Positions 18,372 through 38,522 of a stretch of 64,000 bases of DNA are shown here, piece by piece. The position numbers and the translations under genes were made by a program. The notes beneath the pieces are model-generated. The model saw only the letters and a program-made list of their open reading frames with translations. It did not search any database and was not told the origin of the DNA. The DNA comes from a virus, in the IMG/VR virus record IMGVR_UViG_3300023179_000069, positions 18,472 to 82,471 of that record; one strand, 5' to 3'. How positions within the stretch are numbered: the first letter of the stretch is position 1; every line of letters starts with the position of its first letter.

Positions 18372-19034
18372 ATGGGTATCGTAAAGGGTTTATCCCAAAT
18401 GAATAAGGCACTGGACAAGCCTACAGTCTCATCAGCAGACGGTCCAAAAGGGCGTTGGCTAAAGCTTAATGATGGTCAGAGCGTCAAGATTCGTTTCCTT
18501 CAGGAATTAGATCCCGATTCACAAAATTACAATCCAAAACTAGGTGTTGGATTTATTGCTATTGAACATACAAACCCCAAAGATTACCGCCGAAAGGCGC
18601 TTTGCAGCATTGATGATCAAGGTCGTTGCTATGGCTGCGAAATGCATCGTCGTGACATGAAGGCGGGATGGAAGGGTCGTTCCAGACTGTACATTAATAT
18701 TCTAGTTGATGATGGTACTGAAGAACCCTATGTCGCTATTTTTTCTCAAGGTGCAGGTCCTAAATCTGCTACACCTGAAGTAATTCAATACGCAGGAGAA
18801 ACAGGAAGCATTACAAATGTTGTATGGAGGCTAAAGCGCACAGGCGAGAAAACAGATACTAATTACAGTATTATTCCTTTACCAGCTTCCAACACAGAGC
18901 CAATTGATCCAAATCTAGAGCTATTTGATTTGGAAAAAATGGCAGTTCGTGATGTTCCATATGCTGATCAAGAGTCATTTTACAATGGTACAAATGATGA
19001 ACAGGAATCAACTTCTTCTGCCGTTGAGTGGTAA
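18372..19034 (+). CDS. Single-stranded DNA-binding protein, gp32-like
   Basis: KIRFL, Cys cluster, KRTG..TNY, acidic tail ending in W. Confidence 0.75.
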   Translation: MGIVKGLSQMNKALDKPTVSSADGPKGRWLKLNDGQSVKIRFLQELDPDSQNYNPKLGVGFIAIEHTNPKDYRRKALCSIDDQGRCYGCEMHRRDMKAGWKGRSRLYINILVDDGTEEPYVAIFSQGAGPKSATPEVIQYAGETGSITNVVWRLKRTGEKTDTNYSIIPLPASNTEPIDPNLELFDLEKMAVRDVPYADQESFYNGTNDEQESTSSAVEW

Positions 19035-21911: not shown

Positions 21912-24900
21912 ATGACAGACTTAGTACATTTGCATGTCCATTCACATTATAGTCTCATGGATGGACTATGTTCACCCCACGAGTTAATGCAGGCTGCAAA
22001 AAATCTAGGTCATACTGCTCTTGCCATTACAGATCATGGAACATTGTCAAGTCACCGCGATATGCAAAAGGCAGGGCGGGAATTAGGGGTGAAACCAATC
22101 CTTGGCTTGGAAGCATATATCTCAGAAACAGATAGATTCGACAAGCGTGATATTAAGAATCGTGACGATAATACTCAGGTATACAATCACATCATTCTGC
22201 TTGCTAAGAATCAGACAGGTCTTAGAAACTTGCAAACAATGTCTGAGATTGCTTGGACTGAAGGTTTCTATCGAAAGCCTAGAATTGATATGGAATTGCT
22301 TACCGAATATGGTGAGGGTATTATTGTATTGTCCGGCTGCTTAAATGGTCTTATTTCAAAAGCTATTGAGCGTGGAGACATGGCAAAGGCTGAGAGCATT
22401 GCCAAGTGGTTCAAAGATAGATTTGGTGATGATTTTTACATTGAGGTACAACCACACAATCCCATTGAAATTAATAAGCCTTTGCTAGATATCGCGGATA
22501 AATTAAATATCAAGCCTGTAACCACTTCTGACTGCCATTTTGCCACCTCTAGCCAGAGGGCGCTGGAAGAAGTGTTGCTTATTCTATCTACCAAGCCCAA
22601 TATCAATCGTGAATTCAATTATGAAAATACCAAAAAGATGAGTATGTTTGAGCGGTTGAATTCTATCTATCCAGATAGACCAATCAGTTTTCAGGATATT
22701 GATGTGTATCTGCAGAATCGTTCAGAAGCTCAGGAATGGTATAATAATTCAGGAATTAGTAGAACGGACATTTACGACAATACTCTTGAGATTGCTGACA
22801 AAATTGAAGAATATGAGTATTATGAAAACCTTTCACTCCTTCCAGTTCCTAAGAAAAGTGCAATTATCCAGCTTGAAGAGATGTGCAATGCAAAGCTTTC
22901 TGAAATGGGATTGTCTAGTAAAATCTACAACACAAGATTGATGGAAGAACTAGAAGTTATCCGTAATAAAGATTTTGCATCATACTTCCTAATTGTTGCC
23001 GACATGGTTAATTGGGCAAAAGAAAATGACATTTTGGTGGGACCGGGAAGAGGTTCGGCTGCTGGTTCACTAGTCTGCTATTTGTTAGGAATTACTAATG
23101 TTGATCCGATTGAATACGATTTGCTGTTCTTCCGATTTATTAATCCAGATCGGAATGATTTTCCAGATATTGACACAGACTTTATGGACCGTAGGCGTAG
23201 TGAAGTAAAAGAATATCTACGCAAAAAATTTAAAAATGTAGCATCTATTTCTACATTCCAATACTTTAAAGATAAAGGGGTGATTAGAGATGTTGCTAGA
23301 GTTTTTTCAGTCCCACTGGCAGAAGTTGACAAATCACTTAAAAACATTGAGACTTTTGAGGATTTTGAAAATAGCCCCAATACGCTGGAATTCAGGCAAA
23401 AGTATCCCGAAGTACTTGAGTTTGCCTCTCAGTTACGCGGAAGAATTCGTGGTGTTGGCATGCATGCTGCTGGTGTGGTTGTGTCTAAAGAGCCTATTAG
23501 TAATATCGCGCCAATTGAAACTAGAAATGATACAAATGATAGCGTTTCTGGTCGCGTTCCTGTTGTTGCTTACGATATGGATAATTGTGCAGAATTAGGT
23601 CTTATTAAACTCGACGCCTTGGGTTTAAAAACATTATCAGTTATTTATGATGCTTTAAAATCAATTGAAAAAAGAAGTGGAAAATCAATTGATTTAAATA
23701 AAATTAAATTTAACGATAAGGTAATTTTTGAAGATTTAAGTCAAGGATTTACCAAGGGTGTATTTCAAGCTGAAGCAACTCCATATACTAATTTGTTAAT
23801 TAAAATGGGTGTGGATAACTTTGAAGATTTAGTTGCATCTAATGCTCTTGTTCGTCCCGGTGCCATGAATACTGTTGGTAAATCATATGTTGATAGAAAG
23901 CATGGCAAGGAAGATATTACCTTTGTGCATGAAATTATGAAGCCGTTTACATCTAGAACTTATGGTGTCATCATTTATCAAGAGCAAGTTATGCAGGCAT
24001 GCGTACACTTGGGCGGTATGTCATGGTCTGAGGCCGACAAGGTTCGTAAAATTATTGGTAAGAAAAAAGATGCAAAAGAATTTGATGTATTTAGAGATAA
24101 GTTCATTGAAGGCGCTTCCCAACATATTACAAAAAAACAAGCAGAAACACTTTGGCATGATTTTGAAGCGCATGCTGGATATTCTTTTAATCGTAGTCAT
24201 GCTGTTGCTTATTCCATGTTGTCATATTATTGTGCTTGGATTAAACATTATTATCCAATTGATTTTGTATTTGCATTGCTTAAGAATGAAAATGATAAAG
24301 ATACAAGAACAGAATATTTATTGGAAGCCAAGCGTTTAGGAATTAAAGTACTTTTGCCACATGTTAATGAATCCGATTTGGATTTTACTGTTAAAGGTGA
24401 TTCAATTAGATTTGGTTTAAATAATATTAAATATATTTCAGATAATATTGCAAGCAAATTAATATCTCAAGGTCCATATAAAAATTATTCACATTTAATT
24501 GAAGTATCAAAAACAAAAGGAAGTGGTATTAATTCTAGAGCAATTCAAGCTTTAAATGCAATCGGTGCTGCTGCTTTTGATGACAATCCTAGAACGGGTA
24601 ATGAATCTGAAAATTTGTATGAATATCTTAATGTTCCTAAATTTGATACTCGCGGCATCACTCCATATTTAAGAGCACAAATAAATCCCATTAGTGACTT
24701 CTTGGAAACAGGATGTTTTATTATTATGGCTATGGTTAAATCAATTAAAAAAGGAAAAGGCTGGTCAAGAGTAGAACTTGTGGATGACACGGGAACGATT
24801 GGTATTTTTCATGATGAAAACACTAAAATAGAATCAAACAATATGTATATGTTTCTGGTGGGAGACAATAGAATTCATCATTATGTTACAATTAATGATG

Positions 24901-33684: not shown

Positions 33685-34192
33685 AATTATTGATAATTTT
33701 GAAAGAATGAATAAGGTTGTTTCTGAAATGTTAAAAGGAAACAATCCATCAATTATTGCAAAAAATCTTGATATGCCACGCGCACAAGTTTTAACATTAA
33801 TTGATGAATGGAAAAATATTGTACATTCTGACAATAGAATTCAAGATAGAGCAAGGGAAGCGTTAAGCGCAGCAGATCAACATTATGCCATGATTATTAA
33901 TGAAGCGTGGGATACAGTAGAAGAAGCAGGAGCCAATTCACAATTAAACATTAAAGCACAAGCACTTAAACTTATTGCTGATGTAGAAGGCAAAAGAATT
34001 GATATGCTTCAAAAAGCTGGTTTGCTAGAGAATGCCGACATTGGAAATCAAATTATTGAAACTGAAAGAAAACAAAAAATTCTTATTGATATTCTAAAAG
34101 ATATATCTTCTCGTTGCGAATCATGTAAAATTGAAGTAACTAAAAGAATCTCTGAAGTGACGGGAAAAGTAGAGGCAATTAAAATTGATTGA
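33671..34192 (+). CDS. Probable terminase small subunit
   Basis: N-terminal HTH, helical, coupled to large subunit. Confidence 0.65.
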   Translation: MSELEIIDNFERMNKVVSEMLKGNNPSIIAKNLDMPRAQVLTLIDEWKNIVHSDNRIQDRAREALSAADQHYAMIINEAWDTVEEAGANSQLNIKAQALKLIADVEGKRIDMLQKAGLLENADIGNQIIETERKQKILIDILKDISSRCESCKIEVTKRISEVTGKVEAIKID

Positions 34193-36020
34193 TTTAAATG
34201 AGTTTTTAGATGTTTTGGATGAAGACGAATTTGAAGAAAAGCCAGTTTCTATTGAAGAATTTGTTACATCTAAAAACTTTTTAAATCTTCCGCCATTGTC
34301 AAAATATCAATATATAATGCTTAGCGCAATGACACAAATTTACAAGCGTGAAACATTAGAAAAATTATATGGAAAAGAGGAAGGGTTAAAAAGATATAAG
34401 CAAACTTGTAATGAAGTTATTTTTCAATTAGGCAAAGGTTCTGGAAAAGACTACACATCAACCATTGCTTGTGCCTATGTTGTTTATTTGTTGTTATGTT
34501 TAAAAGATCCAGCCAGATATTATGGAAAACCCTCAGGCGATGCTATTGACATTATTAACATTGCTATTAACGCTGAGCAGGCTAAGCAAGTATTCTTCAA
34601 AGGTTTTTTAGCTCGTATTAAAAAAAGCCCTTGGTTTTCTGGAAAATTTGATGATAAGGTGGCTAAGGTAGAGTTTGATAAGGAAATCACTGTACATTCA
34701 GGTCACTCTCAAAGAGAATCTTGGGAGGGATACAATGTTATTGTTGTTGTACTTGACGAGATTTCAGGCTTTGAATTAGATTCAACTTCAGGAAATGAAC
34801 AGGCAAAAACAGCAGATGCAATTTATAAAATGTATAGGGCTTCCGTTGCATCTCGTTTCCCAGATTTTGGTAAACTAATTCTTCTATCATTTCCTAGATT
34901 TAAAAATGATTATATTCAGCAAAAATACAATGAAGCAGTTGCTGAAAAAGAAACTGTAATTAGAACACATACATTTAAAATTGATCCAGATTTACCGGAT
35001 GAACTTGAAGAAAATAAATTTACTATTGAATGGGAAGAAGATCACATTGTTTCTTATTCTGTTCCAAAAGTATTTGCACTAAAAAGACCCACTTGGGAAA
35101 TTAATCCAACAAGAAAAATTGAAGATTTTACAATTGATTTTTACAAAGACCCAATAGATTCATTATCAAGATTTGCTTGTATGCCACCGGACGCTGTAGA
35201 TGCATTCTTTAAGTCCAGAGAAAAAATTGAAAGAGCTTTTGTTACCAGAAATGGTGTTGATGAATATGGAAGGTTCGCTGACGGATTTCAGCCAGAAGAA
35301 GGCAAAACATATTTCGTACATGTGGACTTGGCGCAAAAGCATGACCATTGTGCAGTAGCAATTGCTCATGTTGATAAATGGACTATCTTAAAAGTTGGCG
35401 GACAGATGAGAGATGCTGCCCCTGAAGTTGTTGTAGATGCAGTAAGATGGTGGACTCCAACATCCGATAAAAGCGTAAACTTTCAAGATGTTAAAGATTA
35501 TATTCTTAGTCTTAGGTCTCGTGGATTTAATATTAAAACTGTTACATTTGATCGCTGGAATTCACATGACCTTATGGCACAACTTAATGCTTATGGAATG
35601 AATGCTGAAATTTTATCGGTTGCCAAAAAACATTATGATGACATGGCACTTGTTGTAACAGAAGAAAGATTAAAGGGTCCAAATATTAAATTGCTTATTG
35701 ATGAACTTTTACAATTAAGAATTATTAAAGATAAGGTTGACCACCCAAGAAAGGGTTCAAAAGACTTGTCTGATGCGGTTTGTGGAGCAATATATAATGC
35801 TGTAAGTTTAACCCCTAGAGGTGAATCAGAAATTACAATTAAAGATTATTATAATTTTGCAGATATTGATGAAGATGATGACGCAAAGATGAGACAACAT
35901 TTAAGCATTACAAGAATTCCAACTGATAAAGTTATGCCGGATAACATTAGAGACTATTTAAGTTCTGAAATTACTAGATCAGAAGAGCAAAGGTTTCTTG
36001 ACAATTTCCAAATTATATAG
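34185..36020 (+). CDS. Terminase large subunit
   Basis: GKGSGKD, VVLDE, nuclease HVDLA..D..DHP..KDLSD. Confidence 0.92.
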   Translation: MIDLNEFLDVLDEDEFEEKPVSIEEFVTSKNFLNLPPLSKYQYIMLSAMTQIYKRETLEKLYGKEEGLKRYKQTCNEVIFQLGKGSGKDYTSTIACAYVVYLLLCLKDPARYYGKPSGDAIDIINIAINAEQAKQVFFKGFLARIKKSPWFSGKFDDKVAKVEFDKEITVHSGHSQRESWEGYNVIVVVLDEISGFELDSTSGNEQAKTADAIYKMYRASVASRFPDFGKLILLSFPRFKNDYIQQKYNEAVAEKETVIRTHTFKIDPDLPDELEENKFTIEWEEDHIVSYSVPKVFALKRPTWEINPTRKIEDFTIDFYKDPIDSLSRFACMPPDAVDAFFKSREKIERAFVTRNGVDEYGRFADGFQPEEGKTYFVHVDLAQKHDHCAVAIAHVDKWTILKVGGQMRDAAPEVVVDAVRWWTPTSDKSVNFQDVKDYILSLRSRGFNIKTVTFDRWNSHDLMAQLNAYGMNAEILSVAKKHYDDMALVVTEERLKGPNIKLLIDELLQLRIIKDKVDHPRKGSKDLSDAVCGAIYNAVSLTPRGESEITIKDYYNFADIDEDDDAKMRQHLSITRIPTDKVMPDNIRDYLSSEITRSEEQRFLDNFQII

Positions 36021-36027
36021 GTATAAT
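35998..36027 (+). promoter_or_regulatory. Promoter TTGACA-N18-TATAAT for tRNA-Ile
   Basis: Perfect hexamers 9 nt before the tRNA. Confidence 0.8.
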
Positions 36028-36036
36028 AAGTTTTAC

Positions 36037-36111
36037 CGGGCGTGGGTGAGCTGGTTGACCACCGCAGGCTTATATCCTGCTATTTGATGGGTTCGATTCC
36101 CATACGCCCGA
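36037..36111 (+). tRNA. tRNA-Ile(UAU)
   Basis: Acceptor CGGGCGT/ACGCCCG; GCAGG-CTTATAT-CCTGC; T arm ATGGG-TTCGATT-CCCAT; no CCA. Confidence 0.85.
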
Positions 36112-36113
36112 CT

Positions 36114-36228
36114 GAGTGGTAGGTAGCGCATCTTAGGATGGATTAGTTACCCAAGCCGGATGAGTCCAAGTGTGAGATAGTTCTCCGACCCATTTGATGC
36201 AGGACTCGGCAAGTTCTACCTACCACTC
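36114..36228 (+). ncRNA. Unassigned structured RNA
   Basis: Perfect 13-bp closing stem plus internal stems CATC/GATG, GAGTCC/GGACTC, GAGA/TCTC. Confidence 0.65.
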
Positions 36229-36258
36229 TCAAGTATGGTAAAATATGAATGAGGACAT

Positions 36259-36756
36259 ATGCGAACTATAACGAAACAGCAAATAGTAGAAACATTAAAG
36301 AGTCGTGATGGTGACTCTTGTTTTATTTGCAAGGAAGAGTTCGTTGATGAATCACCTACTTTAGACCATTGGATTCCATTAGCTCATGGCGGTAGGGATG
36401 AAATAGAAAATCTTAGGCTTGCACATAGAAAATGCAATACGGAAAAAGCAGATAGAATTCCTAATGAAGATGGTACTATTCCTGAGCGGGGAATAAATAG
36501 TTTTGATAGACATAGAATGAAAAGAATGAATAAAAAAAAACTAAAAGAAAAAATATGTCGCGTATGCGAAGATGGAAGACTTTTAGCAAAAGATAATTTA
36601 TGTCGTGTTTGTGGAGCAAGGCCCGGACCAGAACATGCACCACATTACTTAAAAAGACCGTCTAATATTTGTGACCACAATTTAAATTGGTGCTGGGCTT
36701 GCTCAATTGGAATTGTTGATAGAAAATCAGCGTTAGCAAATTTAATGACAGGATGA
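36259..36756 (+). CDS. HNH endonuclease with C-terminal Cys-rich domain
   Basis: RDG..CFIC..LDHWIP..GG..N..HRKCN..K. Confidence 0.9.
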   Translation: MRTITKQQIVETLKSRDGDSCFICKEEFVDESPTLDHWIPLAHGGRDEIENLRLAHRKCNTEKADRIPNEDGTIPERGINSFDRHRMKRMNKKKLKEKICRVCEDGRLLAKDNLCRVCGARPGPEHAPHYLKRPSNICDHNLNWCWACSIGIVDRKSALANLMTG

Positions 36757-36768
36757 TATAATAATAAG

Positions 36769-37293
36769 ATGCCATACGAAATTAAGCATGATATTGAGGG
36801 ATGCAGTGGTTATGCCGTAGTTCTTAAAACTACAGGCAAAATTGTTGGTTGTCACAAAACCAAAGATGATGCGACTAAACATCTTATTGCTCTCAAAATA
36901 AATGTAGAAGAAGCAGAAAAAGTAGAAAAAATGCAATTTGGTCATGGGGCAAAAGTACCTTTTAAAATTGAATATAATGTTCCAGATTGTCAGGGTGGAT
37001 GGGGCGTACTTAAAGAAAATAATGGTCAGGTTGTCGGATGCTATACAAGTGAAGAGGAAGCTAAAAAAGCAATTGAAGCACTTGTTGTTCAAGTAGAAGG
37101 ATATGAAGAAAAAGGGCAGGAAGAAAAAGGCATAGAACCACTATCATTTTGGAATGGTTCATTTGCTCCAGTACTTGGCTCAAAAGATCAAGATTCTAGA
37201 TATGTATCAACTTATAATAGTCCACCGCAAAAAGATGGTAAGCCATCTACCGGATATGGAAATAAATCTGGAAAAGGTTTTAATAACCAATAA
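36769..37293 (+). CDS. Hypothetical protein with duplicated domain and SFWNGSF motif
   Basis: Two PYxI..C.G..V..G..VGC..A repeats; leaderless start. Confidence 0.7.
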   Translation: MPYEIKHDIEGCSGYAVVLKTTGKIVGCHKTKDDATKHLIALKINVEEAEKVEKMQFGHGAKVPFKIEYNVPDCQGGWGVLKENNGQVVGCYTSEEEAKKAIEALVVQVEGYEEKGQEEKGIEPLSFWNGSFAPVLGSKDQDSRYVSTYNSPPQKDGKPSTGYGNKSGKGFNNQ

Positions 37294-38165: not shown

Positions 38166-38522
38166 ATGCCAGAAACATATACACCAACGGATGCTATGGC
38201 TTCTGCTGCCAAAAGAGCTCTCAAATGGAAAGAAGAGGGAAAGGCAACAGGGGCAGGAACAGCCGTAGGATGGACTAGGGCAAACCAGCTTGCTAAAAAG
38301 CAACCACTTTCTCTAGATACAGTTAAAAGAATGTATTCTTTCTTTTCTCGTCATGAAGTAGACAAGAAGGGCAAAGGATTCAATTCCGGAGAAGAAGGTT
38401 TTCCATCAAATGGAAGAATCATGTGGGAAGCTTGGGGTGGAGACGCAGGATATTCTTGGTCAAAGTCCATAGTTAACAGAATGCAAAAAAATTGGGAAGG
38501 CTCGGCATTTTCCTTTAAATAA
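38166..38522 (+). CDS. Probable head-associated protein
   Basis: GTxVGxxRAxQL..TVKRMYSFFSRH..WGGDAG domain that I recall in phage head genes. Confidence 0.6.
   Translation: MPETYTPTDAMASAAKRALKWKEEGKATGAGTAVGWTRANQLAKKQPLSLDTVKRMYSFFSRHEVDKKGKGFNSGEEGFPSNGRIMWEAWGGDAGYSWSKSIVNRMQKNWEGSAFSFK

Follow-up and report, generated by a model that had tools for sequence, protein, structure and literature searches.

A family of phage small RNAs with a conserved core complementary to helix 69 of host-type 23S rRNA

We identified a GC-rich, 115-nucleotide (nt) unit without open reading frames (ORFs) at positions 36114-36228 of a 64,000-nt stretch of viral DNA (positions 18,472 to 82,471 of the IMG/VR virus record IMGVR_UViG_3300023179_000069, an 82-kb record that is 66% complete; the whole 64,000-nt stretch is referred to as the window). 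By its sequence, this unit, which directly follows a tRNA-Ile gene, is the tRNA-linked long form of a family of phage RNAs that is absent from Rfam. The members of this family (family 1) are closed by a covarying terminal helix (P1) and carry, just inside it, a conserved core that is complementary to helix 69 of the actinobacterial type of 23S rRNA; in a second family of phage RNAs (family 2), the corresponding core is complementary to the E. coli type of the same rRNA element. We lean toward the interpretation that the element encodes a trans-acting small RNA of an actinobacterial phage, which would bind helix 69 of the host 23S rRNA by base pairing and thereby act on the host ribosome.

Membership in family 1 was established by scripted motif and helix searches, with imperfect alignments of the interior, starting from the loci around 80 related terminase genes. 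In this starting set, four contigs carry a clear copy of the element behind the same tRNA, and weak copies occur elsewhere; all these copies share CTTAGRATGG-NN-TAGTTAC inside an 11-14-bp closing helix, the sequences of these helices being unrelated. The core pattern was found in at least 119 viral contigs, and the matches listed comprise 91 distinct elements, or 95 with a relaxed core and 99 with fuzzy matching and a helix of at least 11 bp. Over the 99 distinct relatives listed, the core, CUUAG-N-AUGG-NN-UAGUUAC, is near-invariant and the helix sequence changes completely. The same pattern gave 51 matches in 596 Gb of bacterial and archaeal genomes, about as many as expected by chance by our own estimate, and the family architecture, that is, the helix plus a second motif, is present in only two of the 51 (L232 and L249, in contigs binned with Polynucleobacter and Methylococcus). 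Thus, the RNA is a phage trait. No 23S rRNA was found in the two metagenome-assembled genomes (MAGs) that hold these members, and their binning sits beside the Streptomyces-like affinity of the terminase of the window phage. This terminase shares 63-69% identity with its counterparts in Streptomyces phages, and Streptomyces or Gordonia phages account for 232 of the 370 matching records, which makes an actinobacterial host likely for the window phage.

The family 1 core, in the general form CUU(A/G)G-N-(A/G)UG(G/U)-N1-5-UAGUUAC, lies just inside a terminal helix of 11-17 bp that is sequence-variable throughout the family. A second motif, UGC-N-GRA, precedes the 3′ arm, and the long forms add the motifs GAGAUAG and CAUUYNRUGC. 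All of these are found in the window element, in which the helix has 13 bp and the core is the commonest variant, CTTAGGATGGATTAGTTAC, present in 31 of the 99 distinct members listed; 27 distinct long forms have the GAGAUAG and CAUUYNRUGCNGGA motifs in common with the window element. The long forms span 96-136 nt, and 32 of them have the end of a tRNA at most 6 nt upstream, often with a second tRNA at most 12 nt downstream. The short forms, of 73-95 nt, include 36 with a TAnnnT hexamer 4-9 nt upstream (a loose test), 20 of which also have a downstream U-run. Relative to these short forms, the window element has an additional interior domain, and it lacks its own promoter. The circularly permuted forms have the 3′ motif fused directly to the core and are closed by a different helix. 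Permuted members L085, L090, L092, L119, L180, L186, and L195 carry a GUGCAG..AAU motif followed, after 2-5 nt, by the core; their new closing helix has 13-15 bp, and several of them lie directly before a tRNA.

A first-pass annotation of the window, made from the letters, had described the unit as starting 2 nt after the tRNA and as belonging to no family that it could name. The unit indeed begins flush with the tRNA-Ile, 1-2 nt past its end, and the linkage recurs among the relatives: in the 95 distinct ones listed, a tRNA ends at most 6 nt upstream in 35 and starts at most 12 nt downstream in 27. An Rfam 15 run matched nothing in the element, only the tRNA. At the gathering score, the whole window yielded only a transfer-messenger RNA (tmRNA) and three tRNAs; at E <= 10, positions 35900-36400 yielded only the tRNA and two chance matches; and at E <= 1, 10 family 1 loci yielded tRNAs and tmRNA only. 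Similarity searches against 50,697 phage records gave no match for 501 nt of DNA around the element, and none of the family members comes from a cultured phage. For the 35-nt core, the same records gave five matches at E <= 10, four of them chance matches in coding or unannotated DNA and one in a 5′ untranslated region (UTR) of Arthrobacter phage PinkFriday (PP978843; L281). The PinkFriday match (positions 2501-2525 against window 36127-36151, 23/25 identical, E = 0.1) lies just before the start codon of gene 6, behind the terminator of the capsid gene; it may be due to chance, and we did not accept it as homology.

All the features that had been described within the unit lie where the annotation had placed them, and comparison with the relatives sorts them. 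The closing helix, which had been reported as perfect, shows compensatory change at 13 of 13 pairs over 30 long forms, with 98.3% of cells paired against 31-41% in slid controls, and at 12 of 12 predicted pairs over 39 short forms. Together with the family relatives, this covariation bears out the earlier view of the unit as a structured RNA; it is real, conserved, and non-coding. The hairpins proposed for the interior (CATC-TTAG-GATG, GAGTCC/GGACTC, and GAGA-TAGT-TCTC) are present in the sequence, but none of them has a pair that changes on both sides. Across the 30 long forms, CATC/GATG is 65% paired, GAGTCC/GGACTC 73%, and GAGA/TCTC 88% (mostly gapped), and these inner hairpins hold only inside the six-member clade of the window element, being broken or absent outside it. 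The alternative GCATC/GATGC pairing, likewise noted on the first pass, is the sole inner pairing with compensatory change, at two of its five pairs (C-G to U-A, in 7 of 30 rows).

The stretch 36127-36153 had been drawn as a hairpin with a loop. In the family, it is a conserved, mostly unpaired region that contains the core complementary to helix 69 of 23S rRNA. All eight members folded have their lowest predicted pairing in the core; the mean predicted unpaired probability is 0.69 for the window core against 0.35 for the whole RNA, and that of the UAGUUAC block is 0.59-0.93. The picture that emerges robustly from these comparisons and predictions is a terminal clamp with a possible short extension, enclosing a conserved interior that predicted internal pairing does not explain.

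With an alignment-type complement score against the E. coli 16S, 23S, and 5S rRNAs, the best site ended at 23S position 1929 for four of four core variants, and shuffled sequences equaled the score in 7, 0, 7, and 1 of 100 trials, respectively. In this pairing, UAGUUAC faces G1910-A1916 and CUUAG.A faces U1923-G1929, and core letters 8-10 fit poorly. According to the available parts of PMC7104398 and PMC2790883, the homing endonuclease I-CeuI has this 23S stretch as its 26-bp site, and the letters of this site are the same as those of the E. coli rrn operon stretch paired by the core. Actinobacteria are not cut by I-CeuI (PMC2790883, available part). Since the enzyme spares Actinobacteria and its site is the stretch paired by the core, the actinobacterial sequence must differ at this site.

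The 23S variant predicted from the core reads ...AACCAUCCUAAGG... in place of ...AACGGUCCUAAGG..., and a 33-nt pattern with the predicted change was found in at least 114 metagenome contigs, all those listed being in 23S context with the compensating 5′ strand GGUGG. An insertion of ~92-106 nt, which we take to be an actinobacterial 23S signature, follows E. coli position ~1404-1416 in 10 of 10 full-length copies, and the nearest named records to the variant 23S are 11 Actinomycetota, at 85-89% identity. The exact variant helix 69 is present in five of the five named Actinomycetota tested (Tsukamurella, Kitasatospora, Pseudarthrobacter, Streptomyces, and Actinomyces); helix 69 is of the other type in Bacillus badius and E. 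coli.

In an actinobacterial rrn region, helix 69 was the best site for six of six core variants, and for five of these none of 60 shuffles was as good. For window positions 36127-36153 and the named actinobacterial target, a duplex of 15 + 9 = 24 pairs is predicted at -33.8 kcal/mol, the second block of nine paired residues including the CCA side; shuffled duplexes gave -11.1 +/- 2.9 (minimum, -24.1) and the E. coli-type target -27.9 kcal/mol. The linker between the helix and the core contributes as well: in the window, it raises the 23S alignment by 8 score units compared with 2.1-2.5 for random linkers (p = 0.03-0.04 for the linker type), and over 47 linker types the extension shows a modest excess (mean gain, 3.6 vs 2.2 for random ones). 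Substitution in the pairing blocks of family 1 consists of A to G changes at core positions 4, 7, and 14, each of which keeps a wobble pair with U, and of a G to U change at core position 10, which creates a pair with A1919. No consistent further blocks complementary to rRNA were found in the interior of the window element. In the clade of L052 (L097, L100, L113, L120, L140, L155, L169, L181, and L199), a second block, CCGUUAUAG (L052:4930-4945), is an exact complement of E. coli-type 23S 1914-1922; the main core of this clade is nonetheless of the actinobacterial type.

If pairing is the point of the core, it should follow the host rRNA, so that phages of E. coli-type hosts should carry CUUAGGACCG in place of CUUAGGAUGG. 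Scanning for CTTAGGACCG-N0-4-TAGTTAC retrieved at least 120 viral contigs, with ribosomal DNA in one of the 78 distinct contexts listed. The RNAs of this family 2 (L402-L520, for example L433:711-810) are ~95-110 nt long, with the core CUUAGGACCG..UAGUUAC between short pairing flanks, a covarying GGCGGCUGCUGCC hairpin, and an invariant AAGUGAGC end. A third block, UUCGCUAC, present in 49 of the 77 contexts listed, is the complement of the next eight letters, 23S 1930-1937, and in total family 2 is the complement of E. coli-type 23S 1910-1937 in three blocks. Core letters 8-9 are UG in family 1 and CC in family 2, matching CA and GG, respectively, at 23S 1921-1922. Across the two RNA families, the phage cores switch together with the rRNA type of the hosts, the phyla of which are predicted.

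For family 2, the prediction of the host draws on tmRNA. A permuted tmRNA is present at 7 of the 120 family 2 loci listed, and one of these scores as a betaproteobacterial tmRNA (118.5 bits). The betaproteobacterium R. eutropha has I-CeuI sites, according to the available part of PMC7104398, so its helix 69 would be of the E. coli type. Rfam searches of eight family 2 loci returned tRNAs and tmRNA only, the RNA itself being unmatched, and neither the family 2 stretch nor the neighboring protein had a match among cultured phages.

Several points weigh against pairing with helix 69 as the function of the core. The first test, by duplex energy against the E. coli rrn operon, was negative (-20.8 vs -19.6 +/- 1.8 kcal/mol for shuffles), and the variant with the 'AC' spacer was not significant against the actinobacterial rrn region, 6 of 60 shuffles being as good. 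The target pattern was composed from the core itself, so the shuffle statistics for the rrn region measure a fit and are not an independent discovery; the independent evidence is the existence of the variant in named Actinomycetota, together with the second RNA family. Within the duplex, the window spacer AU faces U1917 and A1918 unpaired, and core position 6 varies freely (G, A, U, or C) though it faces C1924. On the side of the phage RNA, the first block of the core is partly paired by prediction (unpaired probability, 0.24-0.62), and the linker can pair with 36196-36200 instead of rRNA. On the side of the ribosome, mature helix 69 is a folded hairpin that is buried in the 70S; because the pairing uses its 3′ strand, the stem must open, at an energy cost. 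Finally, a phage needs ribosomes, and a simple 'ribosome poison' is hard to reconcile with a phage that carries its own tRNAs and tmRNA.

Helix 69 forms the central bridge to the small subunit (B2a in the 70S) and is exposed on free 50S subunits. From the arrangement of the locus, we infer transcription, processing, cellular binding, and an effect on the ribosome along the following lines. A consensus promoter would drive the RNA together with tRNA-Ile, and the 5′ end of the RNA would be freed by the enzymes of tRNA 3′-end processing. The 13-bp terminal helix would clamp both ends and should protect them, the 3′ end included, and in relatives located between two tRNAs, the RNase P cut at the next tRNA would set the 3′ end. 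The working part would be the largely unpaired 36127-36153, complementary to E. coli ~1909-1935: the UAGUUAC block would nucleate on the exposed loop of helix 69, after which the CUUAGGAUGG block and the linker could anneal to the 3′ strand of the stem and to the junction with helix 70. The RNA would act on nascent 23S rRNA or on free 50S subunits, not on the 70S. As a possible outcome, large subunits would be unable to mature or to join the 70S and host ribosome production would stop, and engaged ribosomes, supplied with phage tRNAs, would keep working; the direction of the effect is conjecture. When a peptide nucleic acid (PNA) is directed at helix 69, translation and growth are blocked in E. 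coli, according to the available part of PMC12828698 (citing Kulik 2017), which argues that helix 69 is both reachable and vulnerable.

A wider proposal, which we put forward tentatively as a serious possibility, is that phages of at least two bacterial phyla encode host-matched antisense RNAs against helix 69 as natural effectors aimed at the ribosome. The window copy, situated in a tRNA operon, would then be made in step with the phage tRNAs, in a coordinated takeover of translation that supplies old ribosomes with phage tRNAs and blocks or marks new large subunits. Should the pairing be real, this would be, as far as we know, the first natural trans-acting RNA aimed at a functional center of bacterial rRNA, as well as the first virus RNA matched to the ribosome sequence of its host. 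Phages would thereby have a route to control translation or ribosome biogenesis in the host, an abundant class of small RNAs located between genes and in the tRNA arrays of phages would be accounted for, and helix 69 would stand out as a site that nature itself uses for antisense attack. Furthermore, the core could serve as a host marker for uncultured phages, GGAUGG pointing to actinobacterial-type helix 69 and GGACCG to the E. coli type. Even if the RNA proves to be a guide, a mask, or a scaffold, the family is large, conserved, and uncatalogued.

The core could instead be a binding site for a protein or another RNA, either in a scaffold resembling Y RNAs or in a ribosome-binding-site mimic for titrating 30S subunits, with the match to helix 69 as a by-product or a relic. 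Such a role would suit the spacer and core position 6, which do not keep pairing, and the 5′ block resembles an actinophage Shine-Dalgarno region (the 5′ UTR of PinkFriday gene 6, 23/25, E = 0.1); small RNAs with a terminal helix, such as Y RNAs, reportedly serve as protein scaffolds. However, the anti-Shine-Dalgarno sequence shows no difference between Actinobacteria and Proteobacteria that would explain the switch from UG to CC, which matches 23S 1921-1922 exactly, and the third block of family 2 complements the next 8 nt of 23S rRNA. Moreover, Rfam gave no YrlA match, no TROVE/Ro60 gene was found in the 82-kb, 66% complete record, and the core resembles the 16S 790 loop no better than chance (13/21 identities). 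We consider this explanation unlikely.

It also appears improbable that the core is a guide, directing a nuclease to the host rRNA (RNase III) or to the rRNA genes (an HNH enzyme, through an R-loop) and destroying ribosome production or the chromosome. The same 23S stretch is the I-CeuI site (PMC7104398 and PMC2790883, available parts) and so a favored nuclease target at the DNA level. The 24-pair duplex with the target could be an RNase III substrate. An HNH gene begins 31 nt past the element in the window, and at 20 and 13 of the 72 relatives' loci an HNH gene of one or the other of two families is present at a distance of at most 3 kb, but these families are unrelated to each other, and many of the genes are ~1.9 kb away on the other strand. 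An HNH gene beside the terminase is, in addition, reportedly a common part of phage packaging modules, and we know of no RNA-guided nuclease that consists of a 90-165-aa HNH protein alone.

A protective mask or splint, in which the RNA would cover or hold the helix 69-70 stretch against a toxin or enzyme of host defense so that the ribosomes stay usable, draws on the same complementarity as the antisense interpretation and would suit a phage that invests in translation, with four tRNAs and a tmRNA in the window. Toxins that act nearby are said to exist in mycobacteria, where MazF-mt6 reportedly cuts 23S rRNA in helix 70, but no toxin acting on positions 1909-1937 is known to us. Furthermore, no RtcB-type ligase was found in the 82-kb, 66% complete record, and a bound antisense RNA would itself stop helix 69 from working in the 70S; we regard a mask as doubtful.

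Although a U-run follows the helix in 20 of the 36 promoter-driven short forms and a -10-like element follows it in the window and most relatives, a passive role between the tRNA and the HNH gene, as a processing spacer, insulator, or terminator whose helix matters and whose interior does not, is very improbable. The 19-nt interior core is near-invariant in the 99 distinct members listed, in contrast to the helix sequence, which changes completely; permuted members retain the core with another helix; and the window helix has no U-run or called terminator-like site. The conserved core and the permuted forms exclude a purely passive spacer or terminator.

Several more specific identities were considered and rejected. 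A reading of UUAGRAU as anticodon- or codon-like fails because its third letter can be any base and UUGGG occurs, and a CsrA/RsmA sponge because the middle letter of the core GGA (position 6) is G, A, U, or C among the members. In a kink-turn (K-turn) or box C/D motif, position 6 would provide a letter of the G.A pair, yet it varies, and the linkers adjacent to the helix are unpaired in several subtypes. Mimicry of the 16S 790 loop reaches 13/21 identities, which is equaled by chance matches in 23S, and a lambda-type boxA occurs in one linker subtype only. A tRNA or tRNA-like RNA was rejected on the grounds that ARAGORN calls no gene in 36113-36228 and the Rfam tRNA ends at 36111; a Y RNA (YrlA, RF02553), on the lack of an Rfam match at E <= 10 and of a PF05731 (TROVE) match in the 82-kb, 66% complete record. 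Small self-cleaving ribozymes (hammerhead, twister, pistol, hatchet, hairpin, and hepatitis delta virus-like) had no Rfam match in 35900-36400 at E <= 10 or in 10 relatives' loci at E <= 1. A group I intron would have a core of at least ~200 nt inserted in a gene, in contrast to this free-standing unit of 115 nt without an Rfam match. For antisense action on genes of the phage itself, even the best transcribed-strand matches do not exceed background. Core-like plus-strand stretches, GUAGGAUGGACUAGG (38250-38290) and AUGGAUGGACUAUG (21950-21985), lie inside coding sequence and were taken as coincidence; GUAGGAUGGACUAGG encodes a conserved AVGWTRA motif.

Among known systems, the trans-encoded base-pairing small RNAs of bacteria and phages are likewise short and structured and expose a conserved, unpaired antisense stretch stabilized by flanking helices. 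Compared with these, the proposed target of the phage RNA is a functional center of rRNA rather than an mRNA, the complementarity (two blocks, 24 pairs) is longer than the usual seed, and no chaperone is implied. Recognition of the same rRNA element by antisense molecules has a precedent in the synthetic PNAs against helix 69 (PMC12828698, available part); these are man-made, short, unstructured, and directed at a target of the E. coli type, in contrast to the natural, structured phage RNA directed at the actinobacterial type. Two introns of Coxiella 23S rRNA (insertion points 1917 and 1951), which together with these PNAs are the closest parallels in function, contain guide sequences complementary to the same part of 23S. 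Spliced Coxiella introns associate with ribosomes. Expression of these introns slows the growth of E. coli, according to the available part of PMC4990558 (citing Raghavan et al. 2008). They are self-splicing ribozymes of 250-500 nt within the rRNA gene, whereas the phage RNA is 75-135 nt, free-standing, virus-encoded, and without an Rfam group I match.

Box C/D guide RNAs of archaea and eukaryotes also have paired ends and 10-21-nt antisense elements to rRNA, but the phage RNA lacks box C/D motifs and a K-turn, and no role in methylation is implied; to our knowledge, bacteria lack the box C/D partner proteins. The 'species 1 and 2' RNAs of phage T4 (rnaC and rnaD), stable RNAs that are co-transcribed with tRNAs and released by tRNA processing in a phage whose host is E. 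coli, share only the setting in a tRNA cluster, and we know of no complementarity of these RNAs to rRNA. With Y RNAs (YrlA, RF02553, partner of Ro60/Rsr), the element shares a size of ~100 nt, a long helix joining the ends, tRNA-like neighbors, and occurrence in phages; unlike them, it has no Rfam match, no tRNA-like domain according to ARAGORN, and no TROVE gene in the record. A literature search covering part of PubMed Central, with no subscription-only papers, found no description of a phage RNA complementary to helix 69; in the same part of PubMed Central, the motif strings retrieved only unrelated primers, and nothing relevant was found on stable RNAs from tRNA clusters.

Table 1. Features of the element and its surroundings in the window.
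Feature	Position	Strand	Evidence or remark
Terminase large subunit gene	34185-36020		phrog_2
Sigma-70-type promoter, TTGACA-18 nt-TATAAT	35998-36027	+	Hexamers match 12/12
tRNA-Ile (anticodon UAU)	36037-36112	+	ARAGORN; Rfam RF00005 at 36037-36111, 36.8 bits, E = 3.5e-6
P1 5′ arm, GAGTGGTAGGTAG	36114-36126	+	Perfect 13-bp complement of 36216-36228
Linker j1 (CGCAU)	36127-36131	+	Extends the complementarity to 23S 1930-1935; alternatively pairs with 36196-36200
Conserved core M1 (CUUAGGAUGG-AU-UAGUUAC)	36132-36150	+	Antisense to the loop, 3′ stem strand, and flank of actinobacterial 23S helix 69 (E. coli 1910-1929)
CCA 3′ of the core	36151-36153	+	Both C extend the duplex to G1909 and the G1908-side residues in the actinobacterial helix
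Clade-specific interior	36155-36210	+	GCC/GGC (36155-57/36208-10) and GAGTCC/GGACTC (36162-67/36202-07); both helices present, no compensatory change in the family
GAGAUAG motif, conserved	36174-36180	+	Common to long forms
CAUUUGAUGC-AGGA motif	36191-36204	+	In the clade-specific interior
P1 3′ arm, CTACCTACCACTC	36216-36228	+	Pairs with 36114-36126
Extended -10-like element, TGGTAAAAT	36236-36244	+	Read from the sequence; precedes the HNH gene
HNH endonuclease gene	36259-36756 (ORF)		Pfam PF01844, E = 1.3e-11; phrog_9645, 1.1e-47

The element is single-copy within the 82-kb record (Table 1). As the first-pass annotation had it, it forms an intergenic island enriched in G+C, with a content of 0.47-0.51 over 36050-36249 compared with ~0.28-0.38 in the flanks. 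The promoter starts within the 3′ end of the terminase gene. The P1 arms, GAGTGGTAGGTAG and CTACCTACCACTC, are the sole matches in the window to the 13-mer at up to 2 mismatches, where 0.33 are expected by chance. The predicted fold of the unit has an energy of -41.0 kcal/mol (z = -3.26; 0 of 200 shuffles equal), and the opposite strand folds equally (-43.1, z = -3.93); because the folding energy is alike on both strands, it is the promoter and the tRNA that define the strand. No site resembling a terminator was called at 36114-36240, and P1 is followed on its 3′ side by TCAAGTATGG instead of a U-run. The 'loop' between the P1 arms is 89 nt, which does not correspond to an intrinsic terminator.

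In the window and in most relatives, an extended -10-like box, TGnTAnAAT, lies within ~20 nt 3′ of the closing helix. Since this box adjoins the helix, the RNA would be followed by a fresh promoter for the next, often leaderless gene. The window also encodes four tRNAs and a tmRNA according to ARAGORN. This phage tmRNA (55701-55997; Rfam RF00023, 100.5 bits) specifies an unusually long tag peptide, GTLITESALRNKLETFVRISVAA. Downstream of the RNA, at window positions 36769-37293, a 174-aa protein starts with MPY..G(C)SGY..GCH and contains a duplicated domain that matches no Pfam family; the MPY..G(C)SGY..GCH protein is found downstream of the RNA in 43 of 72 loci. Further recurrent neighbors in these 72 loci are an 80-aa zinc-ribbon protein (19 loci), Dps (18), and Hsp20 (15).

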